A stretch of DNA of 62,312 nucleotides, counting the filler, from Chthonomonadaceae bacterium (lineage in GTDB: Bacteria; Armatimonadota; Chthonomonadetes; Chthonomonadales; Chthonomonadaceae), in assembly GCA_035650735.1 (NCBI GenBank). It is 3 parts of 3 records of this genome, joined end to end, with 100 filler letters (N's around TTAATTAATTAA, not from the genome) between each part and the next. Parts side by side here need not be neighbours in the genome. Positions count along the whole stretch, not along the records: positions 1 to 15,551 come from DASRGZ010000194.1; 2 more parts are not named here. The stretch is one strand, 5' to 3'. The notes beneath the pieces are model-generated. The model searched no databases. It was given only the letters and a program-made list of their open reading frames with translations, and was not told the origin of the DNA. How positions within the stretch are numbered: position 1 is the first letter of the stretch; every line of letters starts with the position of its first letter. Shown piece by piece: positions 1 through 33,102 of this stretch. The translations under genes were made by a program, and so were the position numbers.

Positions 1-444
1 ATCGGCCTTGACCTTCTCCATGTCCGTGCCGATCACCGTCAGCTCCAGCTTAAACTGGTTGACAAGCTCGCGTATCTGGCCTGCGCTGCCCTGAAGGGTT
101 TGCCTCTCGGCGGCAGAGCCGCTCTGGAGCAGAGCCTCCATCCGATCCACGACCCGCTTGAGCAGGGCCGCCATCTCGTAGCGGGTGATAGCGCGCCCGC
201 CCAGGAAATCGCCGTCGGGGGGATAGCCCTGGATGAGGCCCTTGCGGGCCAGGTCCTGGATAGCGGCATAGGCCCAGTGGGTCGGGGGCACGTCCTGGCC
301 CACCGGGGCGCCTGCCTGGCCCCGAGCCGGCAGCGGGCAGGCCATCAGGACCACAAAACTCAGTATGAGAGCGCTGCCCAGCAAAGCAGAGTGAATGCCC
401 CGCGCCCTAAAAGCGCGTTTCTTGCCCTCCTGGCACCGTCGCAA
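1..444 (-). CDS. S-layer homology (SLH) domain protein, N-terminal part (runs off window)
   Basis: Own translation, absent from the ORF track: TTG start after GGAGG, hydrophobic signal-like segment, then GQDVPPTHWAYAAIQDLARKGLIQGYPPDGDFLGGRAITRYEMAALL (SLH motif) and a coiled-coil-like segment. Confidence 0.85.
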   Translation of the reverse strand, partial: MRRCQEGKKRAFRARGIHSALLGSALILSFVVLMACPLPARGQAGAPVGQDVPPTHWAYAAIQDLARKGLIQGYPPDGDFLGGRAITRYEMAALLKRVVDRMEALLQSGSAAERQTLQGSAGQIRELVNQFKLELTVIGTDMEKVKAD

Positions 445-679
445 ATCGTTCCTCCGTAAATGTCGGTAAAAAATATGAAGGCAGCGGCTTATGCCCTAAC
501 CGGCTCGTGCTCCAGGCGGCCGGCTGCCCTGCGCAAATTTCGGCTTCCGGTTGGCAAACCCCTGCCTCTGAACCCAAAAACAGGGAAAATTGGAGGGATT
601 TCAGTGCGTAATCGGCAAGGCTTCTGTCCTCTGAGGGCCCCTGCGCCGAGGCGGCCGCTGGCGGCCTGCGGGAGAGCAT

Positions 680-708
680 TGGACATTCCGGGCCGTTTCT
701 GCTATAAT
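680..708 (+). promoter_or_regulatory. sigma70-type promoter with extended -10
   Basis: TGGACA-17 nt-TATAAT with TG at 700-701, upstream of the 866 gene. Confidence 0.6.
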
Positions 709-865
709 CCGCAAAGGTTCCGCTCCGCTAGGAGGAACTTGGAATACCGCGCGGCGCCGCGTAAGGATCAAGCCGCGCAAACCTCGTCCTGAAAGACTGC
801 CGACAGAGGATAGGGAAATCTGGAACGGCGGCAGGGAGGAAGCAAGGTCGGAGGTAAAAAATCTG

Positions 866-2143
866 GTGAGGATCGTTGAAGTTAGGGAACGCGACGGTGT
901 CGCCCTGTTGCAGGAGGAGTGGCGCGCGCTGCAGGCGCGCTGTCCGGAGGCGACCCCCTTTCAGACGTGGGAGTGGAACGAAGCCTGGTGGCGGCACTTT
1001 GGGGCGCGCAAGCGCCTGCGCCTGCTGCTTTTCCGGGCCGGGCGCGGCGGTCCCGGCGGCGCCGGGGAGCTTGTCGGCATCGCGCCCCTCTACACAAGCT
1101 GGCATCTGGGAACGCCCCTGCGCCGCCTGGCCTGGCTGGGAACCGGCTCCAGCGACTATCTGGGCCCCCTGGCCCTGCCCGCCTATGCGCAGGAGGTCGC
1201 CTCGGCCCTGCTGAACTATCTAGATCGCGGCCTGCGCGGCTGGGACATCGCCGACCTCCAGCAGTTGCGCCCGGATTCGTCGCTGATGGCCCATGCGCCC
1301 CGTCCCTGGCCGCACCGCCCCACCGAAGCCCAATCCACGCTGCCGATGGAGCCCTGCCCTTATCTGCCCCTGCCGCCGACCTGGGAGGCGTTTGCACGGC
1401 GGCTGAGCAAAAAGATGCGCTCCAACCTCGGCTACTACGAGCGCCTGCTGGAAAAGACCTTCCCGGATACGCGCTTCTCCCTGGCCGACGCCCGCACGCT
1501 TTCCGCCGGCATGACCGCCCTGTTTGACCTGCATCAGCGCCGCTGGAACGCCCGCTGGCTTCCCGGCGCCCTGGGCAACAAGCGCGTCCAGTCCTTTCAC
1601 CGTGAGGTGGCCGCGCGCTTCCTGGAGCGGGGCTGGCTGCGGCTGCATCTGCTGCGGGCGGGAGGCGCGATCCGCTCCGCGCTCTACTGCTACGCCTACA
1701 ACGGGCGCACGTACTACTATATCGGCGGCTTTGCGCCGGAACTGGCCAAGTACAGCCTGGGCACGCTGCTGACCGCACACGCCATCCAGCAGGCCATTGA
1801 CGAGGGCTGCTCCGAGTTCGATTTCCTGCGCGGGCAGGAGCCCTATAAGTATCGCTGGCAGCCGGAGGAGCGCATCAACTCCCGCCTGCTGCTGTTGCGC
1901 GCGCGCGATAACCTGGGTGGACTGGGCGAGCTGCCCGGTAAGGCAGGATTCGCCCTCCATCGCGTAGAACGTTACGTCATTCACCGCGCCAAAGCCTTCG
2001 CCAGGCAGCAGAGCCTCAAGAAGGAAAAAGGTGGTCCACCGGAGCCCGGCGCTTCCGGCGCGTTGGCCGCCGAGAACGTGCCGCTCTTGCAGGCTATCGT
2101 TCGGGTGCGAAAGCCCGGAGAGAAGAAGGCAGAGCGGCCCTGA
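866..2143 (+). CDS. GNAT family N-acetyltransferase (CelD/BcsL-like, Acetyltransf_6)
   Basis: TPFQTWEW..AWW, SDYLG, YSLGTLL, FDFLRGQEPYKYRW motifs. Confidence 0.85.
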   Translation: MRIVEVRERDGVALLQEEWRALQARCPEATPFQTWEWNEAWWRHFGARKRLRLLLFRAGRGGPGGAGELVGIAPLYTSWHLGTPLRRLAWLGTGSSDYLGPLALPAYAQEVASALLNYLDRGLRGWDIADLQQLRPDSSLMAHAPRPWPHRPTEAQSTLPMEPCPYLPLPPTWEAFARRLSKKMRSNLGYYERLLEKTFPDTRFSLADARTLSAGMTALFDLHQRRWNARWLPGALGNKRVQSFHREVAARFLERGWLRLHLLRAGGAIRSALYCYAYNGRTYYYIGGFAPELAKYSLGTLLTAHAIQQAIDEGCSEFDFLRGQEPYKYRWQPEERINSRLLLLRARDNLGGLGELPGKAGFALHRVERYVIHRAKAFARQQSLKKEKGGPPEPGASGALAAENVPLLQAIVRVRKPGEKKAERP

Positions 2144-2220
2144 GGGCTCGATTGCGCTCCTGTTGCTGGCGATGATACGGCTCGAACGGCCCACGCGGAG
2201 CAAGTGAGGTTCTACGCTCT

Positions 2221-3018
2221 ATGTTTTACCAGGCAATTTCCCATGTCTTCCTTCGCCGTCGGCCCCGCCCGTATGCTTTCTTGGGGCGGGGCGTGCGGCT
2301 GCTTATCGTGGGCCTGCTGCTGACGGTCTCGCTCACGGGCCTGACCGGCTGCCGCATCCGCAGCTTTCTCTCGACACGCCAGGAGGTCAACCTGGGCAAG
2401 GAGGCATCCCGCCAGGTTGAGCAGGAGTACCGGGTAGACACTATCTCGTCGGATGCCGAGCGGGTGCGCCGTGTCGGCTCAAGCCTGCTGCCGCACATGG
2501 ACCGCCGCGATATGCCCTACTCCTTTAAAGTCATTGACGCGCGTGAAATCAACGCTTTCTCTCTGCCCGGCGGACCGGTCTACGTCTATCGCGGTCTGCT
2601 GGATATGATGGGCGACGACAACGATGCGCTTGCCTGTGTTGTGGGCCATGAGCTGGGCCACATCAACGGCCGGCACGTTGCCCGTGCAATCTCCTCGCAG
2701 TACGCGACCAATATCCTTATCGGCCTGGCGATCCCCAACGCTACCAGCCAGAATATTGCCGGCCTCGTCGCCGACATCGTCAATCTCAAGTACAGTCGTG
2801 ACGACGAGTACGACGCCGACCGGCGCGGCCTGAGCTACGCGCACTTCGCTGGCTACGACCCCGAGGGCATGGTGCGGTTCTTCCACAAGCTGCAGCGCCT
2901 GGAAAAGCGCGAAGGGGGCGGGGGACCGGAGTGGCTGCGGTCGCATCCCTTGACCGGCGCGCGCATCCAGCGGGCGGAAAGCATCATCGCCCACAACGAC
3001 TTCCGCTACGGGCAATGA
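2221..3018 (+). CDS. M48 family zinc metalloprotease, probable lipoprotein
   Basis: INAFSLPGG, HELGH, YSRDDEYDAD, SHP motifs; LTGC lipobox-like. Confidence 0.9.
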   Translation: MFYQAISHVFLRRRPRPYAFLGRGVRLLIVGLLLTVSLTGLTGCRIRSFLSTRQEVNLGKEASRQVEQEYRVDTISSDAERVRRVGSSLLPHMDRRDMPYSFKVIDAREINAFSLPGGPVYVYRGLLDMMGDDNDALACVVGHELGHINGRHVARAISSQYATNILIGLAIPNATSQNIAGLVADIVNLKYSRDDEYDADRRGLSYAHFAGYDPEGMVRFFHKLQRLEKREGGGGPEWLRSHPLTGARIQRAESIIAHNDFRYGQ

Positions 3019-3079
3019 GAATCACCTTCATCTGCTTACGCATTGACTACGTAGGCCAGCGGTCGGGCAGCGTACTTAC

Positions 3080-4186
3080 TCAGTGAGAATCGCCCTCGCC
3101 GGCTTGCGCAGGCTTGGAAGCCGTGGACGGGCGCAGAAGCTGCTTCGGCGCATTGGACGGCGTTCCGGGATAGGTGGGGCGCAGCAGATGCTCCGGCGCG
3201 GCGGGCGGCTCGGAGGCACCGCGCAGCAGCATCTGGCTCTCGTTCTCCCGCTGCTGTCGCTCCCGCAGCAGCGGCAGGATGCGCTCCGCCGTTCGGCGCA
3301 CCAGAGACGTATGCACGCCGCTGAGGAGATGTTCCACCGGCCTGACCGCGCGGCCATCCCCAACCTTTTCCAGCGCCTCCAGTAGATGCAGCGTGAGCCC
3401 CTCGTCCGCCTGGCCCAGGAGACGACACAGGCCCGGCACCGCCTCCGCGCCAAGCTGCCCGTAATGATTGGGGGTTAATCTGCGCAGTACGGCCCGCAGA
3501 GCAGGAATGGCGGCCGTCCGTACTCGCTGGCTCGGCTCCAGAGCGGCCTTTGCCAGCGCGCCCACGCTCTCCGGAGCATGCAGGCGGCCCAGTGCGGTGA
3601 CCCCAGTCGCCCGCACGCGATCCACGCGGCTGTCCTCATATATCAGCGAGCCGAACAGCCCACCGATCCAGGCTCCCACGGCCAGGAGGACCATCAGGAT
3701 GCCCGACCAGGCATGGAAGCGTCCCTGTCCGAAATAGAGCATGCTGAGGATGACGACCAGCAAGATGCTGCCAGCACAGCCCACGCTCAGGGAGAATAGG
3801 GAGCGCTGCAGCATCCGCCCGTACCGGCCGGGATCGACGGGCAGGCGGTTTTCGAGGACATCCAGGAGCGCGCGGATGGCTGCGGGCTGCTGTTTGAGGT
3901 CAAACTCGGTCCATCCCAGCGTCCAGGCCGCGACCTGCCGCTCTTTCCACGGAGCGGTAGGCGTTCTCAGCACCGCGATCAGCGGCGCAGCGGTTTCCAG
4001 ACGGGCCTGGCCTTGCAGGAGAATCGGCGCGGCAAGGCGATAGGTCACGCTGCCGGGATAGAGGCTGTGCAGCAGAGCAGCGACCTCGCTGACTTCCTCC
4101 TGTGTCGGCCTCGGCTCCAGCCGCGCAGCAGTCTGGTTAAACGCCATCACGGGATCGGGCGCCGTGATCGGTTCCTCATGACTCAC
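3080..4186 (-). CDS. HEAT-repeat membrane protein
   Basis: Helical repeats (VRATGVTALGRL, VRTAAIPAL, LEALEKVGDGRAV) around two TM segments; GTGA overlap with the upstream gene. Confidence 0.65.
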   Translation of the reverse strand: MSHEEPITAPDPVMAFNQTAARLEPRPTQEEVSEVAALLHSLYPGSVTYRLAAPILLQGQARLETAAPLIAVLRTPTAPWKERQVAAWTLGWTEFDLKQQPAAIRALLDVLENRLPVDPGRYGRMLQRSLFSLSVGCAGSILLVVILSMLYFGQGRFHAWSGILMVLLAVGAWIGGLFGSLIYEDSRVDRVRATGVTALGRLHAPESVGALAKAALEPSQRVRTAAIPALRAVLRRLTPNHYGQLGAEAVPGLCRLLGQADEGLTLHLLEALEKVGDGRAVRPVEHLLSGVHTSLVRRTAERILPLLRERQQRENESQMLLRGASEPPAAPEHLLRPTYPGTPSNAPKQLLRPSTASKPAQAGEGDSH

Positions 4187-5499
4187 AACAGCATACGCTC
4201 CTTGACCTCCAGGTAGCGGTTGACCAGCTCGGCGGAGAGCTTATCGGCGGGCGCGTCCACCACCAGCACGCCCCGCTGTGCCAGCGCCCCCGTCGCCTTC
4301 TGCCGATCCTCCAGTACCTGCGTCGCGACCGCTTTCTCGTAAATGGCCTGCGCCGCGTCTGCCTCCTGCGCGGCGGCACGCAGCACCTTCGTATCCAGCA
4401 GCGTGACGGCCGCCACCAGATGGCGCGGCTGCAGGCCGGCCAGTTCCGCGATGGTCTGGCGCGAGGAATCAGGATCCCATAGGTCGGTGAAGCAGACCAT
4501 CAGCGAACGTTTGCGCCACCGCGTGGAGAGATAGGCCAGCGCGCCCCGATAGTCCGGCTCAGCCAGCGTCGCCTTCGCGTTATAGAGGGCCTCCAGGATG
4601 GCGTAGACCTGGGCGCGGCCCTTCTTCGGCGGCAGGTACGTCTGCACTGTATCCGCAAAGACCAGCAGGCCCACCTTATCCTCCGAAAGCGTGGCGACGT
4701 AGGCCAGCAGCAGCGCGGCGTTAATGGCGTAATCGAGCTTCTGGATGCCATCAATCTCGGCCAGCATCGTCCGGCCCACATCCAGCACCAGGATCACATT
4801 CTGCGATCTCTCCACTTCATACTGCCGGGAAATGAACTTGCCGCGTCGGGCCGTCGCCTTCCAATCAATGCGCCGCAGCTCGTCGTCCGGCTGATAGTCG
4901 CGCAGGCTCTCAAACTCACGTCCTGCGCCCTGGAGTCGCGCCGCACGAATTCCCAACTGCTGCAAGCGCCCACGCCGCGCCATCAGGTTGAACTTGGCCG
5001 TCTCCAGCAGGTTCGGATAGACTTTGACGGCGGCCCGGGCCGGAACGCGCACCTGGCGCGATACCAGCCCCAATCGCCCCCGCACGCGCAAATAGATGTC
5101 GCCAAAGGTATAATCGCCGCGCGCCTGCGGCGTCAGGTGGTAGAGGATGGCCTGCCTTCTCCCGGCCCCGGCGGTCAACAGGAGGGGCGTGCCCGGCAGA
5201 TCGTTGGGAATGGCCTCCGGCGGCGAGTCGCGCAGCTCCAAGCTCAGGTCCACATCGCTGGTGTTGCGGACGCGCACACGCACAGGGTTAGGCGCCCCGA
5301 GCGAGAGCTTATCTTCCACCTCGCGCTCCACATACAGTTGTTCCAGCGGCGGGAACAGCAGCCAGTCGGTGAGCGCCAGGGCCAGCAACAGGCCGTCCCA
5401 GGCCAACGCCAGGCCCAGGTAGCCGTGCGAAATGCCTGTGAGCAGCAGCGGCACCAGGCCCAGCGCAAACAAAAGAAGCCAGCGTCTGCTGAAAACCAA
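4183..5499 (-). CDS. DUF58 domain protein (MoxR-associated, vWA-like)
   Basis: EFESLRDYQPDDELRRIDWKATAR, LDVGRTM; start reassigned to TTG 5499 after GGAGG. Confidence 0.85.
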   Translation of the reverse strand: MVFSRRWLLLFALGLVPLLLTGISHGYLGLALAWDGLLLALALTDWLLFPPLEQLYVEREVEDKLSLGAPNPVRVRVRNTSDVDLSLELRDSPPEAIPNDLPGTPLLLTAGAGRRQAILYHLTPQARGDYTFGDIYLRVRGRLGLVSRQVRVPARAAVKVYPNLLETAKFNLMARRGRLQQLGIRAARLQGAGREFESLRDYQPDDELRRIDWKATARRGKFISRQYEVERSQNVILVLDVGRTMLAEIDGIQKLDYAINAALLLAYVATLSEDKVGLLVFADTVQTYLPPKKGRAQVYAILEALYNAKATLAEPDYRGALAYLSTRWRKRSLMVCFTDLWDPDSSRQTIAELAGLQPRHLVAAVTLLDTKVLRAAAQEADAAQAIYEKAVATQVLEDRQKATGALAQRGVLVVDAPADKLSAELVNRYLEVKERMLL

Positions 5500-5596
5500 A
5501 ACTACCTCCAGAGGCGTCCGCGCGTCCTGCACGCGCCGCCCAGACTCGATTCGCGCCCAGGAGAGGCCATTCCTGCTTGCCCCCAGCTCCAATAGA

Positions 5597-5785
5597 CCTC
5601 ACCCCCGGCCCCCCTCCTTCTCAAGGAGAGGGGAGGGTCAGAGTTGGCTTCTCCTCCCCCTTCTCCCTGCAAGGGAGAAGGGCCGGGGATGAGGGTAGAA
5701 CCTGACTTCTCCCCTCCCCTGTTCTTGGGGGAGGGGGTTAGGGGGTGGGGGCCTCTCCCCTCTCCCAACTTTAGGAGAGGGGAAC
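5597..5785. repeat. Cluster of GC-rich REP-like hairpins (family A); includes an uninterrupted CTCCCCTCCCCTGTTCTTGGGGGAGGGG copy
   Basis: Palindromes such as CCCTTCTCCCT-GCA-AGGGAGAAGGG; the family recurs at about 8 loci. Confidence 0.85.
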
Positions 5786-5849
5786 ACGGAGTGAGGGTCT
5801 TAACCGGGGATGGCAGCCTGTCCCTATGTAAAATTCTCTGTTCGTACCC

Positions 5850-5878
5850 TTGACAATCTGGCCAGGTTGTTTTATAGT
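5850..5878 (+). promoter_or_regulatory. sigma70-type promoter of the sigH-like gene
   Basis: TTGACA-17 nt-TATAGT. Confidence 0.7.
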
Positions 5879-6027
5879 GAATTTGCTTGCGCCTTTTGAC
5901 GTGACATTTATAGACAAAAGGCACCCGGTCTGGATCGCTTGAAACGCAAGCCTAGAACGCTCAAGGTCGGTTTCGGGAGACTGCTTGGCTCCCTTCCGGC
6001 CCACGGAGCGCTGGAGGAGGATGGCCG

Positions 6028-6672
6028 ATGGTTATGATGAGCCGTGAGTCGTCCTGGGAAGCGCAGGAGCGCGATGAGGAACTCGTGCGTCAGGCCCGTA
6101 CGGGCAGCACGCGCGCCACAGAGCAGTTGCTGGCAAAATATCGCCCCTTGGTGGAGAGCAAGGCGCGCTCGTATTTTTTGCTGGGTGCTGACCACGATGA
6201 TGTCGTGCAGGAAGGCATGATCGGGCTATATAAGGCCATTCGCGACTTCCGAGATGATCGCTTCTCCCGCTTCCGTGCCTTTGCCGACCTCTGCGTCACG
6301 CGCCAGATCATCACGGCGGTCAAGACGGCGACCCGCCAGAAGCACCTGCCCCTGAACGCCTATATCTCACTCTATCACATGCCCTCGGCTGATACCGAAA
6401 GCGGCGACGGCACGCTGCTGGACTGCCTGCCCGATACACGCTGCAACGACCCTGAGCACTGCCTGTTCCAGCATCACGAAACTTCCGGGCGACTCGAGGC
6501 CGTGCGCCACACGCTCTCGCCTCTGGAAGTGCGTGTGCTCGATTGCTACCTGGAAGGCAAATCCTATCGTGAGATGTCCGATGAGCTTCACTGCCAGCCC
6601 AAAACCGTAGATAACGCGCTCCAGCGTGTCAAACGCAAGATCGGAGAATTTCTGCCCCGCATGAAGGCTTAA
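6028..6672 (+). CDS. sigH: RNA polymerase sigma factor SigH (Spo0H-like)
   Basis: KARSYFLLGADHDDVVQEGMIGLYKAIRDF, LCVTRQIITAVKTATRQKH.PLN, KTVDNALQRVKRK. Confidence 0.9.
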   Translation: MVMMSRESSWEAQERDEELVRQARTGSTRATEQLLAKYRPLVESKARSYFLLGADHDDVVQEGMIGLYKAIRDFRDDRFSRFRAFADLCVTRQIITAVKTATRQKHLPLNAYISLYHMPSADTESGDGTLLDCLPDTRCNDPEHCLFQHHETSGRLEAVRHTLSPLEVRVLDCYLEGKSYREMSDELHCQPKTVDNALQRVKRKIGEFLPRMKA

Positions 6673-6674
6673 AC

Positions 6675-7673
6675 ATGGCGCTTCCCCCACCGCGCTATCT
6701 GCGCCCGCAAGACCTGCGCCGTTTCCAGAACTTCCAGTTCGCCGCACGGCTGATCGTCGAAGGCTTCTACGCCGGACGGCACCGCTCGCCCTATCACGAC
6801 GCCTCCGCCGAGTTCGCCGACTACCGCCCCTACGTCCCCGGCGACGAGATACGCGCCCTGGACTGGCGTGCCTATGCCCGCACCGACCGCGACTATATCA
6901 AGCTCTTCCGCAAAGATACCGACATGCGCTGCCATGTGCTGTTGGATACCAGCCGCTCCATGGCCTTCCGGGGCGAGCCGGAAGCCGACCCGGATACCGA
7001 CCCTCCGCCGCGCAGGAACGGGTGGCGGCGCCTGGCCCCGCAGAGGAAGCAAACCGCAGGCAACAAGAGTGAGGAGGCCCCACTCTCCAAATTTGAATAC
7101 GCCGCCTACCTGACGGCGGCGCTCGGCTACCTCATGATCCGGCAGGGGGACAGGGCCAGCCTGGCGCTCGGCGCCGACGACTTACAGGTTTTCCTGCCTC
7201 CCGGTGGCACGATGGCGCACCTGTATCGCCTGCTCTACACCCTGGAGCAGACACGTCCCGACGGCCCGACGCGCCTCTCGACGGCGCTGCGCGCCCTGTT
7301 TACGGTGGCCCGGCGCAAGGGCCTGCTCGTCGTCCTCTCCGACTTTCTGGAAGCGCCGGAGCCGCTGTTTGCTGCACTTTCCATGTACGCCCAGCGCGGC
7401 TGGCAGATCCTGCTGCTCCAAGTGCTGACCGAGGCCGAGATGAATCTGCCGGATGCCGGCAGACCCTTACGCTTCCTGGATGCCGAAGGGCCAGGAATGG
7501 CCGATGCCGATCCTAACGCCCTCCGCGCCGCCTACCGATCTGAGCTGCAAGCCCACCTCGATACGCTGGAAACCCAATCCAAAGCCCACCGTATTCACTA
7601 CGCCCGCATGACCACCGCCACTCCCTACGACCAGGCCCTCGAACGCTACCTCACCACCCGCTCCCAATCCTGA
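6675..7673 (+). CDS. DUF58 domain protein
   Basis: GRHRSP, EFADYRPYVPGDEIRALDWRAYAR, LDTSRSM, VVLSDF. Confidence 0.88.
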   Translation: MALPPPRYLRPQDLRRFQNFQFAARLIVEGFYAGRHRSPYHDASAEFADYRPYVPGDEIRALDWRAYARTDRDYIKLFRKDTDMRCHVLLDTSRSMAFRGEPEADPDTDPPPRRNGWRRLAPQRKQTAGNKSEEAPLSKFEYAAYLTAALGYLMIRQGDRASLALGADDLQVFLPPGGTMAHLYRLLYTLEQTRPDGPTRLSTALRALFTVARRKGLLVVLSDFLEAPEPLFAALSMYAQRGWQILLLQVLTEAEMNLPDAGRPLRFLDAEGPGMADADPNALRAAYRSELQAHLDTLETQSKAHRIHYARMTTATPYDQALERYLTTRSQS

Positions 7674-7730
7674 AGAATCCCCTGCGCCACAGACACGCAG
7701 GAAATAGAGCGAAAAATGAAGAAAAACCGC

Positions 7731-7758
7731 TAAATATGCCGGGCACTGCCGCCGATAA
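7731..7758 (+). promoter_or_regulatory. sigma28 (FliA/SigD)-type promoter
   Basis: TAAA-16 nt-GCCGATAA consensus match. Confidence 0.6.
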
Positions 7759-7858
7759 TAGAACGAAGGACCCTTTCCCTTCCCCAAAGCCGGCGCTCTG
7801 CGCACCGTAATCTGCGTGCTAGATACCAGGCCCATGGCGGCTCGGAGGCATTGTTGTC

Positions 7859-9193
7859 GTGAAGTACACAAGGTGGAAATCCGTGGCTGAGCGCTGCCTG
7901 CTCGGTACCGTGCTGTCGGGGATCGGAGGCCTCTGCTTCGGTCTGATGGGCTGTGGCGATCACAGCAGTGGCCCTCCCGCCAATAGCGCCACAACGCGCG
8001 CCGCCATTGCCGGCATCGTGCGTGCGCCGGCGAGCCAGATGCGCCCTGCCTCAGCCCGCAGGCGCCCCACATCCGCCCTGGAGCCGGTTCCCAACGCGCT
8101 CGTGACGCTTACCAACTTGGATACGGGCGCTCTCGTCGCCACCACCAGCACCGACGCGCAGGGCAGCTATGCCTTTCCCCAGGCCCAGGACGGCGTCAAC
8201 TATCAGGTCACGGCCACGGCCCAGACTCCCAACGGCACGCTGACAGAGAGCGCGCTTCTCACCCCGCCCATGTCGGACGAGCCTATCCTGCGCGATCTCG
8301 ATCCCGCTTCGACTCTGGCCGCTGCCGCTGCGCTCAAACAATACCGTGGGTGGAAAGAGACGACCTCCGCAACTAGCGGGCCGACAGCGGTCGGCAGCTT
8401 ACAGGCGCTTGCCGATGAGCTGGAACAGAATCTGAAGCAGAAGAGTGTCCCGGCGCCAGACCTGACCCGCCAGGGGACCCTTCTCGCCGCCTCGACGCGG
8501 CTGCTGACAGACAACCGGGCCAGGGGCGCGTATGCGGGCGATCTGGACGGGGAGGACTCCGCGGGCAAGCTGGCGGTGCTCGTCGCTGGCGGACGCTTTC
8601 GCCTGGTCGTGATACCTGATCCCCGCGCCGATGAAGGCGCTCTGAGCGCGAGCCGCCGCAGTGCGGAGGGAACCGTTAGCGCTAGCGGCGTCCTGATCGC
8701 TAGAGCAGGCGGTAATCTACAGGTCAGCGGCATGCTGATCGGCGATGTCGGCTCCGGAGTCTGGAGCGATGGCGCGCACAGAGGCACCTGGAAAGTCGCC
8801 AGGCTCACCAGAGCCGACGCCGGACTCTATGAAGGCACGTTCACCAGGCCCGGCACCCTGCAAGAAGAGAACGGGGGACGTGTCGCCGCCATCATCCAGG
8901 ACGACGGCTCGCTCTACATCCAGGCCGGCAATGGTAGGGACGCAGAGACCAGCCTGTTCGGCAAGGGATCCATAGACGCCTACGGCCATATCCTCTTCTT
9001 TTTCCTGGACAGCGCCGGAGGCATGGGCACCGGCACCGGGCAGCTCACCGCCGATGGCTACGTCAGCGGCAGCTACACCACCAGCGCCAGGGTAAAACGC
9101 TACTGGCATGTCAAGCACCAGACGACACTGCCGCCGTCACGAAGCGCACGCCCGCTTGCCCAGCAGCGGCGCACTACGCCTGCCTCCTCGTGA
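7859..9193 (+). CDS. Predicted lipoprotein with carboxypeptidase-regulatory-like (Cna/prealbumin-fold) domain
   Basis: LMGC lipobox; PVPNALVTL...TTSTDAQGSYAF motif; beta-rich C-terminus. Confidence 0.65.
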   Translation: MKYTRWKSVAERCLLGTVLSGIGGLCFGLMGCGDHSSGPPANSATTRAAIAGIVRAPASQMRPASARRRPTSALEPVPNALVTLTNLDTGALVATTSTDAQGSYAFPQAQDGVNYQVTATAQTPNGTLTESALLTPPMSDEPILRDLDPASTLAAAAALKQYRGWKETTSATSGPTAVGSLQALADELEQNLKQKSVPAPDLTRQGTLLAASTRLLTDNRARGAYAGDLDGEDSAGKLAVLVAGGRFRLVVIPDPRADEGALSASRRSAEGTVSASGVLIARAGGNLQVSGMLIGDVGSGVWSDGAHRGTWKVARLTRADAGLYEGTFTRPGTLQEENGGRVAAIIQDDGSLYIQAGNGRDAETSLFGKGSIDAYGHILFFFLDSAGGMGTGTGQLTADGYVSGSYTTSARVKRYWHVKHQTTLPPSRSARPLAQQRRTTPASS

Positions 9194-9199
9194 ACAGAG

Positions 9200-9425
9200 G
9201 CACCTAACCCCCTTCCCTGATCCGTTCGCTTCGCTCACAGGGAAGAGGGTGCTAGGGTTCTGAGGGTTCTAAGGGGCTAAGGAACGTTCGCTACGCTCAC
9301 AGGGAAGGGGATGACCCGACTTCTCCTCTCCCTTCTCCCTAGCAGGGAGAAGGGCCGGGGAGGAGGGGAGAACCTAGCTTCTCCTCTCCCCTTTCCTTCT
9401 CAAAGATAGAGGCCGGTGTGAGGTC
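9200..9425. repeat. REP-like family A cluster with internal direct duplication
   Basis: CCCTTCTCCCT-AGC-AGGGAGAAGGG hairpin; CGTTCGCTWCGCTCACAGGGAAG occurs twice. Confidence 0.8.
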
Positions 9426-9506
9426 TATTCGGGGTGCGGGCCAGACAGGGCTTTTCTCCGTGTGGTTTTTCCTCCGTGCCTCCGTGTCTCTAGCGCAGCG
9501 GGTGGT

Positions 9507-10484
9507 CTATTCGGCCTGTAGGATGGCTTCGCACTCGGCCCAGAGGCGGCGGACAAGATGGGCGGCAGGCGGAATATCCTGGACGGCGGCGCAGCTTGTG
9601 CCCGCATAGAGGGCCATTTCCAGCACGCTGCCGGTCATGCCCTCGCGCGGAGCCGTGTCCTCATAGCGTCGGATCGGCTCACCGGATGCGGCGTAGGCCA
9701 CCGTCTCCCCCTCGCCGGGGCGCTGCCCGACCGGCGGGCATCCGGCCGCCTCCCAATTCTCCAGCGTGGGATTGCGTAGGACGCGGTGCGCGGCATAGGG
9801 CCAGCCGCCGTCAAAGCAGACCGTCAGCGCCGTATCGGAGGCAGAAGACTCCACCAGGCGGCGTTTGTAATCGGGATGGGCGCGGCTCTCCTGCGTGGCG
9901 ACAAAGCGCGTGCCCAGCATGGCCCCCGCCGCCCCCAACCGGAGCGCCCGCGCGATCCCCGCGCCGTCACCGATGCCCCCCGCCGCAATCACCGGCGTCT
10001 CCCCGGCAGCCTCAACCACGCGCGGCAGCAACTCCCAGAGAGGCATTGTGGACTGAACATGCCCGCCCGCCTCCAACCCCTGACAGATCAGGAAATCCAC
10101 GCCGAGCGTTACGGCACGCCGCGCGCCCTGCGCGCTCGTCACCTGCACGCCGACGATGGCCCCCGCCGCGCGCCCCTGCTCCAGATACGGGGTCGGATCG
10201 CCCCAGGAAAACGAAACCACCGGCGCTCCTTCCGCCAGAACCGCGCCTAGCGCGGTCGGCGGGAAAGCCAGGGCAAAGTTGACCAGGAACGGGTTTTCGG
10301 TGGCAGCGCGCACCTGCCGCACATAGGCCGCCGCCGTCTCCGGGGCCGTCCAGGTCAGCGCCATCGCGCCCATCGCCCCCGCCGCCGAGACCGCCGTCGC
10401 CAGTTCCGGCCCCGCGATGCTGCCCGTCGGCGCCTGGAAGATCGGATAGCGCAGTCCCAACGGCGGGGCCTGCCGCGCGCTCAT
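9507..10484 (-). CDS. Nitronate monooxygenase family flavoprotein
   Basis: PIFQAP, QGLEAGGH, VIAAGGIGDG, GAMLGTRF, LYAG motifs. Confidence 0.88.
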   Translation of the reverse strand: MSARQAPPLGLRYPIFQAPTGSIAGPELATAVSAAGAMGAMALTWTAPETAAAYVRQVRAATENPFLVNFALAFPPTALGAVLAEGAPVVSFSWGDPTPYLEQGRAAGAIVGVQVTSAQGARRAVTLGVDFLICQGLEAGGHVQSTMPLWELLPRVVEAAGETPVIAAGGIGDGAGIARALRLGAAGAMLGTRFVATQESRAHPDYKRRLVESSASDTALTVCFDGGWPYAAHRVLRNPTLENWEAAGCPPVGQRPGEGETVAYAASGEPIRRYEDTAPREGMTGSVLEMALYAGTSCAAVQDIPPAAHLVRRLWAECEAILQAE

Positions 10485-10548
10485 TGCCCCTGCTTTCCCG
10501 GTAACTGACGCAGGGCAGGCCCACTAAGACGTAGCCGCTCCCACGCGC

Positions 10549-11256
10549 TCATGGCTTCCGCTTCCCCTCTTCCGGCACATCGGCACGCCGGATGTCCTCG
10601 CTCTCGGTCCCCTCAGGAATGCCCGACCCGCCGAACTCCCCCAGCATCCGCCCATACTTCATAACCCCCAGGACCGACCCGCCGCCCTCCGTATAGCGGG
10701 CGCGGGCGATGCCCTGGAGTGCGCTCGGCGCGCGCTCCGCTATTTCGGCTGGGTCCATTGCCGGCTGGTGCGCCAGCGTCAGGAACTCGGCGTCAAACAC
10801 CGCCATCTCCTCCTCGATCTTGTAGGGCCTATAGTTAGGAGCCGTAGACGGCGCCATGAGCGAAAACTTGAGGATGGAGTTATTGACGCCCTTCAGACGG
10901 CGCAGATACGCCTCCCGCGACCTGGCGTGCCAGACGGCAAACGCCCGCACGTCGGCATGGTCGGCAGGCAGGGAAGACAGGCGGGCGCGACGAGCCTGGT
11001 TCTCGCGTACCAGCCGGGCGCGCTGCGCGACCACCTCCTGGCGCTCCGTGAGGATATCCTTCTGTACCTGAATCCAGTCCGGCAACGCCCCCGCATTCTT
11101 GAGGATTTTGTTCGCCAGGCGCAGGTGCGGCGGCGTCATCGGGTCGTCATCAAAGACAATCGGCTTGCCCTTGCCCGGCAGATTATCAAACTTGCCTTCC
11201 TCAATCGCCTCTTGAATCTTGCGCTCCGCAACTTTGCTAAAGACTTCAGGATCCAT
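10549..11256 (-). CDS. DUF1992 (DnaJC28 conserved-domain) protein
   Basis: AERKIQEAIEEGKFDNLPGKGKP...KILKNAG.LPDWI. Confidence 0.85.
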   Translation of the reverse strand: MDPEVFSKVAERKIQEAIEEGKFDNLPGKGKPIVFDDDPMTPPHLRLANKILKNAGALPDWIQVQKDILTERQEVVAQRARLVRENQARRARLSSLPADHADVRAFAVWHARSREAYLRRLKGVNNSILKFSLMAPSTAPNYRPYKIEEEMAVFDAEFLTLAHQPAMDPAEIAERAPSALQGIARARYTEGGGSVLGVMKYGRMLGEFGGSGIPEGTESEDIRRADVPEEGKRKP

Positions 11257-11389
11257 CGCTTGCCGTCCTTTCTCTCCTGCCCACCGAAACGCTTTCTTCT
11301 ACCCTCAGTATACCAGCCCGGCCCTCCCAAACGCCATAGTCTGTAGAAAATTTCACAAACTGCACCGCGCCAAACTTCCACCGAAACAC

Positions 11390-11418
11390 TTGACGCCGGA
11401 CGCGCTTTCCGCTAACAT
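11390..11418 (+). promoter_or_regulatory. Possible sigma70 promoter
   Basis: TTGACG-17 nt-TAACAT. Confidence 0.45.
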
Positions 11419-11498
11419 GAAGGGCATACACATCCGGCTCTCTCGCCATACCCACAAGCTATCCGCCCTGGCCGCGCCCAGGGCAAGGAGTTCCGACC

Positions 11499-12251
11499 TT
11501 GAAGTTGCCTCTGCTTTCCCGATGCACGGCCAGCCTGGCGCTCGCCGCGCTGCTCACCCTATCCATCCCCGCCTTAGCGGACGCCACCCACGCGCGCAAA
11601 CCCGGCCCGCAGCCCCAGAACGCGCGCGCCGCAAAGCGCCCTCTCACCGGGGAGGATGTCGTCGCCACCGTCGAAGGTCAGCCCATCACCCGCCGCCAGC
11701 TCACCTACTACTGGCTCCAGGTGGACAGGAAAGGCCCCAGTGCCCTCCTGGCCGACCTGCTCGCCGACCGCTGGAAAGCCGATAAAGGCGCCTCCCGCGC
11801 CTACACCATCCCCGACTCCGAGATCTACGCCCGCCTCTATACCGGTAACGACGCCCTGGTCGCCGATGTCCTCTCCAGCCTCATCACCAACCGCCTGGTC
11901 GCCATCGAAGCCGCCCGCAAAGGCATTCGCGTCACCCAGGCCGAAGCCCGCGCCTACGCCCACGAATTCTTCGACCAGGTGCGCCGCCAGAGCGGCATCC
12001 AGGACACCGACGAGCAGCTGATGCAGAAGTTCCACCTGCCCCGCGATGTCTTTCTCGACGATATGCTGTTCCGCCTCCGCACCGAGAAGCTCCTGGCCGC
12101 CGACCTCGGCCATCCCATCCCGCAGCCAGACTGGAAGCAGTACGTCGAAAGCCACCGCAACCCCTTCCTGGCCGCCCTCCGCAAAAAGGCTAAGATCACC
12201 AGCACCATTCCCCTGCCCGCGCCGGAAAAGCCAATACCTCAACAGGATTAA
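11499..12251 (+). CDS. Secreted SurA/PrsA N-terminal-like chaperone-domain protein
   Basis: Signal peptide; VVATVEGQPIT, LI..RLV..EAARKGIRVT, LAALRKKAKI; no PPIase domain evident. Confidence 0.65.
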   Translation: MKLPLLSRCTASLALAALLTLSIPALADATHARKPGPQPQNARAAKRPLTGEDVVATVEGQPITRRQLTYYWLQVDRKGPSALLADLLADRWKADKGASRAYTIPDSEIYARLYTGNDALVADVLSSLITNRLVAIEAARKGIRVTQAEARAYAHEFFDQVRRQSGIQDTDEQLMQKFHLPRDVFLDDMLFRLRTEKLLAADLGHPIPQPDWKQYVESHRNPFLAALRKKAKITSTIPLPAPEKPIPQQD

Positions 12252-12377
12252 CAGGATTAACAGGATTATTCAGGATTAACAAGATTTCTAACACTTATTG
12301 AGCATTCGTACAAGCCCTGCTTGTTTCTCTCTCTAGCCCTAATCCTGTAATCCTGAGTAATCCTGTTAATCCTGTTG
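12240..12377. mobile_element. MITE-like element with tandem (AA)CAGGATT termini
   Basis: 20-bp perfect terminal IR CAACAGGATTAACAGGATTA; homologous to 15793-15957 and 29621-29719. Confidence 0.7.
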
Positions 12378-12399
12378 GATTCTTTACCCAGCGGGTGGT

Positions 12400-13902
12400 T
12401 TAATCGGTCTTTACGGCGGCGAAGGTCGCCAGCGGGATAAACTCGGCGTCGGGGGGAGCCTCCTGCGGGCCGAAGTGCGCCCCGCCTACCTCGCCCAGCG
12501 CGCCGTCGCCGGTCGGCTCCAGCAGCCGCACCCGCGCCAGCGTGCCGATCAGGTGCGACCCGCCCGTAAACTGCACCCGGATATAGTTGCTGGTATAGCC
12601 GCCCAAGAGGCTGCCCATGCCCCCCTCCTGCGGACCGACAGCGATGCGCTCGTGGTCGTCGTTGCCGCTGGCCCCGCCTTCCGAGTCGGCCCGGTCCGGC
12701 CCCTCCTTGCCCTCCACCAGCACCTCCATCGTCCGGCCCAGGTAGCGGCGGATGAACTGCTGCTGTGTCTCCCGGCACACGGCCGCCAGCTCCTTGCTGC
12801 GCGCCTCCTTCTCCGCCTCAGAAACCTGGTCCGGCAGGTCGGCGGCGGGCGTGTTGGGACGCGGCGAGTAGCGGAACAGGTGCGCCCGCGCGTAGCCTAC
12901 CGTTCGTGCCACCGTGAGCGTGTTCTCAAAGGCCGCGCGATCCTCGCCGGGGAAGCCGACCATGATGTCGGCCGTAATCGCCAGATCGGGAATGCGCTCG
13001 TAGGCCGCCCGGCACCGCTCCAGGTAAAACGCCTGATCGTAGGGCCGATTCATCGCCTTCAGGATGCGCGAGTCCCCGCTTTGCAGCGGAATATGCAGAT
13101 GTCGGCACAGCTTCGGCTCGGAGGCAAAGGCGTCTAGCAGCTTGTCCGTCACCTGCGTCGGCTCAATGGAGGAGAGCCGCACGCGCGCAATGTCCGGCAC
13201 CTGCGCCAGCCGCAGCAGCAGATCCGCCAGATCGGGATGCGCGTTCGCGGCGGGCGACGCAGCCAGAAAGGTTGTGCGCGGCATCTCCCGGCCCGGCACC
13301 GGCGTAAAGCCGTCCTGCCCGTAGGCCCCGACCAGCACGCCCGTGATGACGACCTCCCGATAGCCCTGCGCGGCCAGCCGCTCCACTTCGGCTACGACCT
13401 CTGCCACAGGCCGCGACACCATGTACTTGCGCGTATACGGAATGGAGCAGAACGCGCAGAAGACGTTGCAGCCGTCCTGCACCTTCACCGTGGCGCGCGT
13501 GCGCCGGAACGCCCGGCGGCGCTCCGCCGCGCGATCCACTCCCAGTTCCCGCTCCAGATGCGGGAAGGCGCGGAGCACGTGGGTCAGCGTCTCCAGCTTC
13601 TGATGATTGGGCACGATCAGCGTGGCCTCTTCCACCGTCTCGCCCTTGATCTTAGCCATCTCGCCGTAGCAGCCGGTCATCACAACGATGGCGTTCGGGT
13701 TCTGGCGGGCCACCTTGCGCACCATCTGGCGGGACTTACGCTCCGCCGCCTGCGTTACCGAGCAGGTATTGATGACGTAGACATCCGCCGGCTCGGTAAA
13801 CTCCGTAATGGCGAAGCCCCGCTCCTCGAAGTCGTCCAGAATGCGCTGCGTCTCATACTGATTGACCTTGCAGCCCAGCGTGGTAAATGCGGCAGTCGGC
13901 AC
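12400..13902 (-). CDS. mtaB: tRNA t6A37 methylthiotransferase MtaB
   Basis: TLGCKVNQYE, INTCSVT, radical SAM CNVFCAFC, RLSSIEP, HIPLQSG, TRAM domain. Confidence 0.93.
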   Translation of the reverse strand: MPTAAFTTLGCKVNQYETQRILDDFEERGFAITEFTEPADVYVINTCSVTQAAERKSRQMVRKVARQNPNAIVVMTGCYGEMAKIKGETVEEATLIVPNHQKLETLTHVLRAFPHLERELGVDRAAERRRAFRRTRATVKVQDGCNVFCAFCSIPYTRKYMVSRPVAEVVAEVERLAAQGYREVVITGVLVGAYGQDGFTPVPGREMPRTTFLAASPAANAHPDLADLLLRLAQVPDIARVRLSSIEPTQVTDKLLDAFASEPKLCRHLHIPLQSGDSRILKAMNRPYDQAFYLERCRAAYERIPDLAITADIMVGFPGEDRAAFENTLTVARTVGYARAHLFRYSPRPNTPAADLPDQVSEAEKEARSKELAAVCRETQQQFIRRYLGRTMEVLVEGKEGPDRADSEGGASGNDDHERIAVGPQEGGMGSLLGGYTSNYIRVQFTGGSHLIGTLARVRLLEPTGDGALGEVGGAHFGPQEAPPDAEFIPLATFAAVKTD

Positions 13903-14064
13903 GGCGATTCTTGCTCCGGTAAAGTGTAACCTTTTAGGGTAAACGCTTGTCGTTATAATGGCAGTCCTAGTTTACCCGGTCGCAGCCTGTTCGTCAAATG
14001 TCTCTCTTCGGAGTGGAGTAAGGGCCACAACCATCGCAAGCCCGGTCCCCCCTTCCCTCGCAGG

Positions 14065-14153
14065 GTCGCCAGGCGGAGGGCTGTCGCGAGGCGGAGCGCC
14101 GAACCATTGTAGACGCGACCCTTGCAGTCCATTGTAGGGCCGACCCTTGCAGT
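14065..14153. mobile_element. Short REP-inserted element with a single 37-nt CRISPR-like unit (spacer-less version)
   Basis: 18-nt left end + 37-nt unit (14083-14119) + right end, homologous to the 15405 and 32851 elements; interrupts a family A hairpin. Confidence 0.6.
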
Positions 14154-14190
14154 GGGGGCGGGGGTTAGGTCAAACACGGAAGTGAGGACT

Positions 14191-15282
14191 TCAGCCGCCC
14201 GAACAGCGGTGCAGCACATTATCAACACGCTCGTCAATACGCTCGTCCTTTTCGCGCTGCCGCAGATAGAACTCCTCATAAAACACCTTGATAAACCCGG
14301 TAAGCGGGGTCGAGATCAGAGCGCCCACGATCCCGAACGCGCTGCCCAGCGCCAGCACCATAAAGATCACCGAAACCGGATGGAGATTCATCTGCCGCCC
14401 GCGTATCAACGGACCCAGAAAGCTTCCGGTGAACTCATTCAAAGCGGCATAGAGCAGGATAGCCCACAGGCCCTTTACCGGCTCGATAGCCAGCGCCACC
14501 AGGATCGGCGGCGTTGCCATGATGAAGGGGCCAATCTGCGGGATCAATTCCGAAAAGAAGGCCAGCCCGGCCCAGACGACGGCGCCGGGCACATCCAGAA
14601 AGGTGAGGACGGCCCCCACCACGATCGCATCGAAGCCACCGATGATCACCTGCGCCCACATCCAGGCCACCACCATCTGCGAGCTGCGGGCCAGCGCGCG
14701 CTCCGCAGGCTCCCGCAGATGGGCCGGAAGCGCCGCAAAGTAGCCGCGAAGGAGGGGACGCGGATGGGCCAGCATATAAATGATAACGCTCAGCATCACG
14801 ATACCGACCACGATCACGCTGAGGGCCGTGATCGAATACTGGCCGATGCCCCACAGAATGGTTTTAAAAGAGGGAAGGAGTTGGGTGAGATTCTGGGCGT
14901 TATATTTGACGCTTTGCTGCGCCGCCGGGTAGTGGCGCAGCAGGCGGGCCAGACGATTGCTCATATCGGAGGCATAGCGGGGCAGGTTCTCGGCCAGTAC
15001 CGTCCCCTGCTGGATCAGGCGCGGCACCACCAGCCATCCGATCAGGCCCAGCACGACGGCCACGACCAGGCAGACCAGGGCCGTGCCCAGAGCGCGCGAT
15101 ACCCCCTTGTCCTCCAGCCACGTCACCGGCGGATTCAGCGCAATGGCAATGATGGCTGCTGTAACAAACAGCAGCAGCACAAAGGTAATGGCGTCTAGAA
15201 ACCAGATCGCCAGGAAAACGCCGACCGCCAGGTAGACAATGCGGGAGAGTACTCTATAAAGCTGATCGTACCGGGATTCCAT
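14191..15282 (-). CDS. AI-2E family transporter
   Basis: Multi-TM; ALNPPVTWLE, ELIPQIGP, LHPVSVI..FGIVGALISTP. Confidence 0.9.
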   Translation of the reverse strand: MESRYDQLYRVLSRIVYLAVGVFLAIWFLDAITFVLLLFVTAAIIAIALNPPVTWLEDKGVSRALGTALVCLVVAVVLGLIGWLVVPRLIQQGTVLAENLPRYASDMSNRLARLLRHYPAAQQSVKYNAQNLTQLLPSFKTILWGIGQYSITALSVIVVGIVMLSVIIYMLAHPRPLLRGYFAALPAHLREPAERALARSSQMVVAWMWAQVIIGGFDAIVVGAVLTFLDVPGAVVWAGLAFFSELIPQIGPFIMATPPILVALAIEPVKGLWAILLYAALNEFTGSFLGPLIRGRQMNLHPVSVIFMVLALGSAFGIVGALISTPLTGFIKVFYEEFYLRQREKDERIDERVDNVLHRCSGG

Positions 15283-15404
15283 GAAGGGCTGCGCTCTCTG
15301 CTCTGCGGGCCGGACTCCTGTGCTGCTGATTGCATACTACATACGAGCCAGCCGCGCAATCGTGCCCCGCTCCCAAATGACTCTCCCCTCCCCTGTTCTT
15401 GGGG

Positions 15405-15551
15405 GTCGCAAGGCGGAGGGCTGTGGCAAGGCGGAGGCAGGGGCCCTAACCCTGCCGACGGCCAGTATTCGCAACCCTTCCACCTTGATGTTGATGTCGC
15501 AAGGCGGAGGCAGGGGCCGTAACCCTGCCGACCCTGGCAGTCCATTGCAGG
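15405..15551. mobile_element. REP-inserted element carrying a CRISPR-like mini-array (truncated by contig end)
   Basis: Near-identical to 32851-33002 with a different genomic flank. Confidence 0.65.
15423..15532 (-). CRISPR. CRISPR-like mini-array: two 37-nt repeats, one 36-nt spacer
   Basis: Repeats 15423-15459 and 15496-15532 (35/37 identical), internal GGCAGGG/CCCTGCC hairpin; minus strand reads GTCGGCAGG...CCTTGCGAC; no cas genes in window. Confidence 0.45.
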
Positions 15552-15651
15552 NNNNNNNNNNNNNNNNNNNNNNNNNNNNNNNNNNNNNNNNNNNNTTAAT
15601 TAATTAANNNNNNNNNNNNNNNNNNNNNNNNNNNNNNNNNNNNNNNNNNNN
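15552..15651. other. Artificial contig linker
   Basis: N-run/TTAATTAATTAA/N-run, 100 nt. Confidence 0.97.
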
Positions 15652-32713: not shown

Positions 32714-32850
32714 GCCCTCGCCCCCAACCCCTCTCCCGGCGCTGCGGGAGAGGAGAAGCGGGGTTCCACCCTCATCCCCGTCCCTTCTCCCTGCTAGGGA
32801 GAAGGGGAAAGAGAAGCCAACGCTGACCCTCCCCTCCCCTGTTCTTGGGG
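32714..32850. repeat. REP-like family A cluster
   Basis: CCTCTCCCGGCGCTGCGGGAGAGG and related hairpins. Confidence 0.85.
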
Positions 32851-33002
32851 ATCGCGAGGCAGAGGGCTGTGGCAAGGCGGAGGCAGGGGCCCTAACCCTG
32901 CCGACGGCCAGTATTCGCAACCCTTCCACCTTGATGTTGATGTCGCAAGGCGGAGGCAGAGGCCGTAACCCTGCCGACCCTGGCAGTCCGTTGCAGGCCC
33001 GA
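32851..33002. mobile_element. Second REP-inserted element with CRISPR-like mini-array (truncated by contig end)
   Basis: Repeats 32869-32905 and 32942-32978; spacer 32906-32941 identical to 15460-15495. Confidence 0.65.
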
Positions 33003-33102
33003 NNNNNNNNNNNNNNNNNNNNNNNNNNNNNNNNNNNNNNNNNNNNTTAATTAATTAANNNNNNNNNNNNNNNNNNNNNNNNNNNNNNNNNNNNNNNNNN
33101 NN
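33003..33102. other. Artificial contig linker
   Basis: N-run/TTAATTAATTAA/N-run, 100 nt. Confidence 0.97.

Follow-up and report, generated by a model that had tools for sequence, protein, structure and literature searches.

REP, BIME and REPIN elements (Bertels & Rainey 2011, PMC3116915; Nunvar 2010, PMC2817692; Ton-Hoang 2012, PMC3333891) are short, GC-rich imperfect palindromes that are extragenic, occur in hundreds of copies, form mosaic clusters and are lineage-specific. Their stems are kept by compensatory change and their subfamilies behave like replicating populations. The REPs within a BIME alternate in orientation (head-to-head or tail-to-tail), and in the REPIN-RAYT system a single-copy RAYT gene (Y1/HUH) is flanked by the repeats. 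Bacterial MITEs, including nested MITEs, are reviewed by Delihas (2011, PMC3184786). They are non-coding, multi-copy intergenic elements of less than 300 bp with terminal inverted repeats. Palindromic extragenic repeats can also serve as insertion targets. The insertion sequences IS1397, ISPpu9 and ISPpu10 insert at a fixed place within such repeats (Tobes & Pareja 2006, PMC1525189; PMC12288879). They are autonomous members of the IS3 or IS110 family with transposase genes and, for IS110, bridge RNAs.

This work describes a doubled palindromic element of a Chthonomonadaceae bacterium (GenBank assembly GCA_035650735.1). An initial annotation had presented it as a mobile, REP-targeting element that carries a CRISPR-like mini-array and may belong to a guide-RNA system. 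We consider it likely that the element is one subfamily of lineage-specific, non-coding, small palindromic repeats of the REP/BIME/MITE kind, and that the mini-array is a propagated internal duplication. A literature search, limited in reach, returned no account of such repeats in Chthonomonas or Armatimonadetes.

Sequence material and searches

The source assembly (G000) comprises 6.52 Mb in 224 contigs, has a G+C content of 63% and is 97.6% complete. The window, i.e. the whole stretch of 62,312 nucleotides that was analysed, places three contigs side by side, namely C194, C195 and the start of C197. They are separated, at 15552-15651 and 33003-33102, by artificial, strandless linkers of 100 nt each (N run, TTAATTAATTAA, N run), which are not biology, so the adjacency across these two stretches is not real. 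Positions without a contig name refer to the window. The anatomy of the units and of their nesting was derived from a by-eye alignment of many copies. For doubled copies, a spacer-agnostic gapped pattern was searched collection-wide, in which any spacer of 25-50 nt was allowed between a repeat end and a repeat start.

Location of the element

Contig C194 corresponds to window positions 1-15551, which places the studied element at the very end of the contig. Positions 1-502 of metagenome contig L042 are 100% identical to C194 15050-15551 and reveal the true right continuation of the element at L042:494-538 (...cccgaccctggcagt gggggacggggggttaggt), followed by the upstream region of rpoB. The ATG of rpoB lies 130 nt beyond the element end in L042, and its domains were confirmed; this true right neighbour of C194 is absent from the G000 assembly. 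The left neighbour is a gene for an AI-2E-family transporter on the minus strand (14191-15282), and the element (15385-15551) sits between the divergent starts of both genes.

Family elements in the same orientation lie on both sides of the transporter gene, namely the studied one and another at 14065-14153. The latter (plus strand) has two nesting levels and an inner hairpin other than H1 (GCGCC gaaccattgtaga CGCG), and sits in an outer hairpin of the CCCCCTTCCCT type. Mechanical ORFs of 108-116 aa run over the repeat elements at 13953-14279 (minus), 15195-15545 (minus) and 15281-15607 (plus); they are almost certainly spurious and arise because these G+C-rich repeats lack stop codons.

Anatomy of the doubled element

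All parts of the element are given on the plus strand. At 15385-15404 lie the left arm, the loop and the first Gs of an outer hairpin (CCCCTCCCC TGTTCTT GGGG), here called scaffold A, which hosts nested units and of which the genome contains 88 such arms. The 18-nt left end (15405-15422; L motif GTCGCAAGG + CGGAG + GGCT) belongs to an outer unit U1, of which it forms the left half, and the same left half-unit precedes the repeat at most loci. Repeat 1 (R1, 15423-15459) consists of the L motif GTGGCAAGG, CGGAG, hairpin H1 with the loop variant GCCCTAA, and CGAC, without an R motif of its own. It is followed by a 36-nt filler or 'spacer' (15460-15495), which is the same at every doubled locus, and by repeat 2 (R2, 15496-15532), composed of the L motif GTCGCAAGG, CGGAG, H1 (GGCAGGG gccgtaa CCCTGCC) and CGAC. 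The R motif CCTGGCAGT (15533-15541), one of 1253 in the genome, closes the inner unit. The start of the right half of U1 (CCATTGCAGG..., 15542-15551) is cut by the contig end and goes on in L042:494-538.

Much of the initial description is thereby borne out. The 37-nt repeat, 36-nt spacer and 37-nt repeat are found where it placed them; R1 and R2 form a 38-nt direct repeat with 95% identity and a start-to-start spacing of 73. The left end is indeed a partial repeat (15405-15419 matches the first 15 nt of R2 at 15/15 positions), the repeat contains a 7-bp hairpin (GGCAGGG/CCCTGCC, 7-nt loop), and its minus-strand reading is correct. What had been taken for a conserved right end is cut at 15551 by the contig end and the linker, and its real continuation is that in L042. 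The minus-strand reading of the spacer as stop-free (INIKVEGLRILA) is right, also in another copy, but as a hint at a captured gene fragment it carries no evidential weight, since twelve codons remain free of stops with a chance of ~0.56. The idea that the element ends directly against unique host DNA has to be given up: its left end adjoins another repeat, the scaffold A arm at 15385-15404. The repeat itself goes beyond chance, with four matches in the window versus none in 100 shuffles, and 150 genome matches of the 37-mer at ≤ 3 mismatches versus none for a reversed control.

The window contains a second doubled copy at 32831-33002 (plus strand; equal architecture at 32869-32978) with the same spacer and the R2 variant GCAGAGG. 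It is truncated by the contig end and continues into contig C62, and metagenome contig L039 bridges C195 and C62. A scaffold A hairpin without any nested unit (CCCCTCCCCTGTTCTTGGGGGAGGGGG...GGGGGTGGGGGCC) is found at 5711-5753 (plus strand).

A family of short palindromic units

The basic unit of the family measures ~45 nt and reads L (NTCGCNAGG) - CGGAG - short GC-rich hairpin - CGAC - R (CCTNGCAGT), with L (TCGCNAGG) and R (CCTNGCAG) forming an imperfect inverted repeat. Different hairpins can take the core position, among them H1 (GCAGGGGCCGTAACCCTGC), GCGCgaaccgttgaGCGC and GGCCCgaaccattgcaGGGCC. The 37-nt 'repeat' equals L + CGGAG + H1 + CGAC, i.e. the core of this palindromic unit. An uninterrupted unit has the form L-CGGAG-GGGC gaaccattgca GCCC-CGAC-R, or L-CGGAG-GGGCgaaccattgcaGCCC-CGAC-R. 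At the studied locus, the inner unit is bracketed by GTCGCAAGGCGGAGGGCT (the 18-nt left end) and CCATTGCAGGCCCGACCCTGGCAGT, as though an outer unit had been split in its loop into these two halves. The whole stack is located in the 3' arm of the simple outer hairpin CCCCTCCCC-TGTTCTT-GGGG(A)GGGG...GGGGTGGGGGCC.

Among the 88 copies of the outer-hairpin arm, 35 are empty and ~50 are filled with L...R stacks of discrete lengths (45-46, 88, 107, 114 and 141 nt, and others); stacks reach ~230 nt. Other outer hairpin types also host units, and the stacks are mosaics of several outer hairpin types and several inner hairpins. From the alignment, units appear to be nested one inside another and inside outer hairpins. 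Of 142 islands, 50 hold as many L as R motifs, where 2000 shuffles gave a mean of 35 and a maximum of 50, and in 108 the two counts differ by at most one. As their correlation per island corresponds to a moderate symmetry only (r = 0.35), we infer nesting by insertion and do not consider it proven. At the outer-hairpin junctions, where TTGGGG meets [A/G]TCGC and GCAGT meets [A/G]GGG, there is at most a possible 1-nt repeat and no clear target-site duplication.

A larger composite palindrome (GGGCGGCGAAAGC ... GTAGCAACCAAGGCAC ... GTGCCTTGGTTGC ... TTCGCCCGC) occurs in six copies, on C17, C53, C56, C63, C83 and C198, each with one H1 unit in its left arm, so that an outer element of a quite different kind also hosts the H1 unit. 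Short tandem heptamer runs (CCCTACA, CCCCTAC or CCCTATC, 5-7 copies) lie directly to the right of several outer hairpins, e.g. at C17:~17880, C19:~30990 and, in reverse complement, C40 ~61060.

Genome-wide, the 37-mer has 179 copies at ≤ 6 mismatches, distributed over 168 sites, of which 157 are solo, 11 are double and none contains more than two. Islands with at least three family motifs number 268 and total 26 kb, i.e. 0.4% of the genome. Frames of ≥ 200 aa contain 38% of the island midpoints, versus 86% of the genome overall, a crude stop-to-stop-frame test of intergenic location because GC-rich repeats lack stop codons; wherever loci were checked, the location is intergenic. The family repeat fills intergenic gaps and breaks the assembly, and this is why the draft contigs end where they do.

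The H1 stem is well conserved, with all seven pairs Watson-Crick in 145 of the 179 copies. Compensatory change is seen at one pair, where 100 copies have G-C and 63 have A-T, and three copies carry the fully re-compensated stem CCGGAG/CTCCGG. The doubled element as a whole folds no better than shuffles (z = -1.7 and -1.5 as RNA, +0.26 as DNA).

The doubled variant and its spacer

The 36-nt spacer occurs 14 times in the assembly at ≤ 5 mismatches and once more with a 1-nt insertion. Twelve of these 15 occurrences are at contig ends and represent left and right halves of the same copies, which brings the number of genomic copies to ~10. This estimate agrees with the depth of the R1-spacer-R2 unitig, which is 6.7-8.3x that of single-copy flanks in three public metagenome runs. 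Across the 15 occurrences, the only spacer variants are C16T, G31A and the 1-nt insertion (+A). The spacer-agnostic pattern retrieved 10 metagenome loci, all of them 100% identical to contigs of G000 and all (10/10) with the same 36-nt spacer. Complete internal doubled copies are present on three contigs (C40, C126 and C138), and five metagenome contigs (L039, L042, L043, L044 and L047) span a doubled copy with both unique flanks.

The doubled variant has sub-lineages (a T variant of the spacer; GAGG versus GGGG in R2) and occurs in at least five outer contexts, which would look like the pattern expected of a replicating subfamily. No insertion polymorphism at the element's locus was readable in the contigs of four metagenome runs, all of which were broken at the repeat or joined to other family copies.

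The filler was compared with the family itself. Its similarity to other family modules is not above that of shuffles, and the candidate origin as a degenerate inverted copy of a family module was rejected (alignment scores of 18-19 against 152 solo elements, 17-27 for 60 shuffles). Contig C187 (4.35 kb) has two inverted doubled copies at its bounds and was considered as a composite transposon. This was rejected as well, as no transposase is present among its genes: the 4.1-kb segment between the doubled copies encodes a GT2-like glycosyltransferase, an ABC transporter and a kinase-like protein.

Distribution among relatives

Among the sampled species, only this one shows the expansion of the family. 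G000 has 436 occurrences of the motif TCGCNAGGCGGAGG, whereas the counts in 40 relatives range from 0 to 5 per genome and stay at control level. The 37-mer is absent from 39 of these 40 relatives, and the single match, in G019, lies on a contig that is 100% identical to G000. This 8.2-kb contig (G019:C128; L036/L048) belongs to a Chthonomonadaceae MAG of a different genus and is 100% identical over 486 nt to the G000 element-rpoB junction; it is probably mis-binned, because that MAG's own rpoB is 79% identical.

In the same-genus genome G001, the outer hairpin carries GTCGCAAGG-[different hairpin]-CCTTGCAGT. H1 is therefore younger than the scaffold and the L/R ends. At the site orthologous to the window's second doubled copy, G001 has ~5 nt between the genes versus ~330 nt in G000, where the intergenic region contains three stacked hairpin elements including the doubled one. 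At the studied locus, synteny differs in G001: the AI-2E transporter gene is absent and a radical-SAM gene lies directly beside rpoB. The locus represented by L044 has no match in G001.

CRISPR and guide-RNA signatures

The CRISPR-like interpretation, in which the element would be a mini-array or guide-RNA cassette linked to Cas1 or TnpB, is largely refuted. The earlier note had itself counted a lack of spacer diversity, of a protospacer and of a cognate protein against this interpretation. The spacer is the same in 15/15 assembly occurrences and 10/10 metagenome loci, sites are mostly solo, and neither a protospacer nor a cognate protein adjoining the copies examined came to light. Searched against its own genome, the spacer matches nothing beyond the doubled copies themselves; against phages, plasmids and IMG/VR, nothing exceeds chance (best E 0.4 in the phage collection, best E 1 in the plasmid collection and zero hits in IMG/VR). 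Rfam, including its CRISPR-DR families, gave no match in the window at gathering thresholds, and at E ≤ 10 only a chance match on L042 (E 1.4). At all 168 sites, three or more regularly spaced direct repeats, as expected for a CRISPR array, are lacking, and a genome-wide array scan puts the 37-mer in no array.

The genome does have a real CRISPR at C93:2501-7701, with 80 repeats of GTTTCAATTCCACGCTGGTTCGATTAAAG (29 nt), diverse spacers of 35-40 nt and cas1 beside it (C93:8388-9416), and the 37-mer is unrelated to its repeat. Mini-arrays of three repeats, equally unrelated to the 37-mer, are located at C109:6231-6361 and C224:43546-43689. No family motifs were found near cas1 on C93, near three matches to Y1 transposases or near the tnpB of C52. 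Two TnpB-like loci were detected (C52 and C206) and neither adjoins the family; for C206, the nearest 37-mer matches among those listed are ~7 kb away. The element neither overlaps nor follows a tnpB 3' end and does not carry IS200/605 subterminal ends, as a TnpB omega-RNA or an IS200-IS605 right end would. An IS110 transposase was not detected in the assembly (97.6% complete).

Candidate mobilising enzymes

As initially noted, no cas or transposase gene is visible in the neighbourhood of the element. This extends to the related repeats: no cas, tnpB or IS110 gene adjoins the copies examined, and a mobilising enzyme of any of these types or of the Y1-transposase type was not found next to family copies.

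Two Y1 (HUH) genes on C166 are RAYT-like. They pass the IS200 model and stay below the cut-off of the REP_Tyr_transpos (RAYT) model. Gene 1 (C166:80092-80433; L031) has its own inverted palindromes of the GGGTACTTTCAGTRCCC type with 44 genome copies, and gene 2 (C166:12640-12873; L032) those of the CCGGYCCTWWAGGRCCGG type with 58 genome copies. Because each is flanked by its own, different palindromes, both are regarded as classical REP-RAYT-like pairs and not demonstrably as the mobiliser of the family. Protein 1 reads H-V-P where the HUH motif is expected, and protein 2 looks short at the N-terminus.

The search for an autonomous parent IS that shares the family ends found no IS-length multi-copy repeat in the assembly, which has no contig below ~2.4 kb. 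A partner gene could therefore be missing from the assembly, and its absence is weak evidence.

Explanations for the family and its doubled variant

The proposal of a mobile, REP-targeting element is plausible and reasonably supported by the coexistence of empty and filled outer hairpins, by the empty orthologous intergenic site in the same genus, and by a doubled variant that carries a private 73-nt insertion at ~10 loci in different outer contexts. Based on the alignments, units would insert into the loops of other units, leaving half-units of 18 nt on the left and 25 nt on the right. The mini-array would have arisen once, when an inner unit gained 73 nt between CGAC and R through an internal insertion or duplication, namely the 36-nt filler and a second L-CGGAG-H1-CGAC. 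The doubled variant, marked in this way, would then have been copied to ~10 intergenic sites. Its spread may have occurred through hairpin-directed transposition (single-strand, HUH/Y1-type or similar) with an enzyme that acts in trans and is unlinked or unassembled. The family may also act as a terminator or mRNA stabiliser. A bolder version of this mechanism, which we put forward tentatively and hold to be rather doubtful, is that the family constitutes a self-nesting, hairpin-targeting mini-transposon. Units of ~45 nt with fixed L/R ends and interchangeable cores would insert at defined positions in loops or 3' arms of other extragenic hairpins, including those of their own kin, be mobilised in trans by an unlinked single-strand enzyme (HUH-type or other), and have burst to > 400 half-units in one Chthonomonadaceae species. 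If so, these units would rank among the smallest mobile DNAs, and the mini-array would mark a lineage like a natural bar code and thereby record its replicative spread to ~10 sites. If units do nest by insertion, the family would lend itself, as a compact natural system, to the study of hairpin-directed insertion and of population dynamics of the REP-like kind in Armatimonadota, a little-studied phylum.

Three other explanations were weighed against the mobile repeat family. A mis-join or collapsed repeat at contig ends could mimic the repeat-spacer-repeat structure, and most spacer occurrences (12/15) as well as the studied element, which touches the linker, are found at such ends; given the three complete internal copies, the independent metagenome contigs that span five copies with both unique flanks and the unitig that covers R1-spacer-R2 in three runs, an assembly artefact is very improbable. 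We give equally little credit to a non-autonomous cassette of CRISPR-like or omega-RNA-like guides that spreads via REP sites with an unseen Cas1, TnpB or IS110-type protein. The repeat and spacer lengths (37 and 36 nt) and the hairpin resemble CRISPR dimensions, and Cas1 and two TnpB-like proteins are encoded elsewhere in the genome. Against this stand the identical spacer at all ~10 loci and 10/10 metagenome loci, the 157 of 168 repeat sites that are solo with none exceeding two copies, and the lack of a protospacer in the genome, phage, plasmid and IMG/VR collections and of a match to Rfam CRISPR-DR or other families. Cas1 accompanies an 80-repeat array of an unrelated repeat, family motifs are absent near Cas1, the Y1 genes and the C52 tnpB, the 97.6%-complete assembly has no IS110, and the 4.1-kb segment flanked by two copies holds a glycosyltransferase, an ABC transporter and a kinase-like protein. 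A false CRISPR/omega-RNA lead is thereby removed.

The family might also not be transposable at all and consist of structured sequences with a regulatory or architectural function (terminators, mRNA-stabilising hairpins, protein-binding sites), which expanded through local slippage or duplication and were homogenised by recombination or gene conversion, the doubled form having spread by conversion between existing copies. Several observations suit the non-transposable alternative: compensatory changes preserve the hairpin, every checked locus is strictly intergenic, neither a transposase partner nor a target-site duplication was found, and the 18-nt periodic left units could stem from slippage. 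At the studied locus, however, the element lies between the divergent starts of the AI-2E transporter gene and rpoB, which is not a terminator position. Slippage with gene conversion is a possible origin that accounts less well for the empty orthologous site and for the variety of outer contexts: the doubled variant is found in at least five different ones, and the G001 site offers no repeat to convert. The rise of half-units in a single species from background to 436 and the existence of both empty and filled outer hairpins point in the same direction, and altogether we judge this alternative unlikely, though better placed than the artefact or the guide cassette.

Comparison with known systems

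The dimensions that suggested a CRISPR array (repeat of ~37 nt, spacer of ~36 nt, hairpin in the repeat) are shared with the doubled element, whereas its at most two repeats per site, its invariant spacer, the absence of a leader/cas neighbourhood and the dispersed solo copies set it apart. With the REP-targeting insertion sequences IS1397, ISPpu9 and ISPpu10, the family would have in common that insertion occurs at a fixed place within palindromic extragenic repeats; unlike these autonomous elements, it contains no ORF.

The closest known systems of the family are the REP/BIME/REPIN elements and small MITEs. Like MITEs, the family is non-coding, shorter than 300 bp, multi-copy and intergenic, with terminal inverted repeats (TCGCNAGG/CCTNGCAG), and a marked variant was propagated to several loci. 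It differs by the lack of a recognisable target-site duplication and of a parent IS with family ends, and its ~45-nt unit is much smaller than typical MITEs. The resemblance to the REP/BIME/REPIN-RAYT elements covers the short GC-rich imperfect palindromes, the hundreds of extragenic copies in mosaic clusters, the lineage specificity, the stems kept by compensatory change and the population-like behaviour of subfamilies. Unlike REPIN-RAYT systems, no RAYT is flanked by the family, the genome's two RAYT-like genes carrying other REPs; unlike the alternating REPs of BIMEs, its half-units are nested concentrically in one orientation; and unlike REPs, its termini (L/R) are conserved while the hairpin core can be swapped. 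The doubled element is thus an ordinary element class, REP/MITE-like with a propagated internal duplication.
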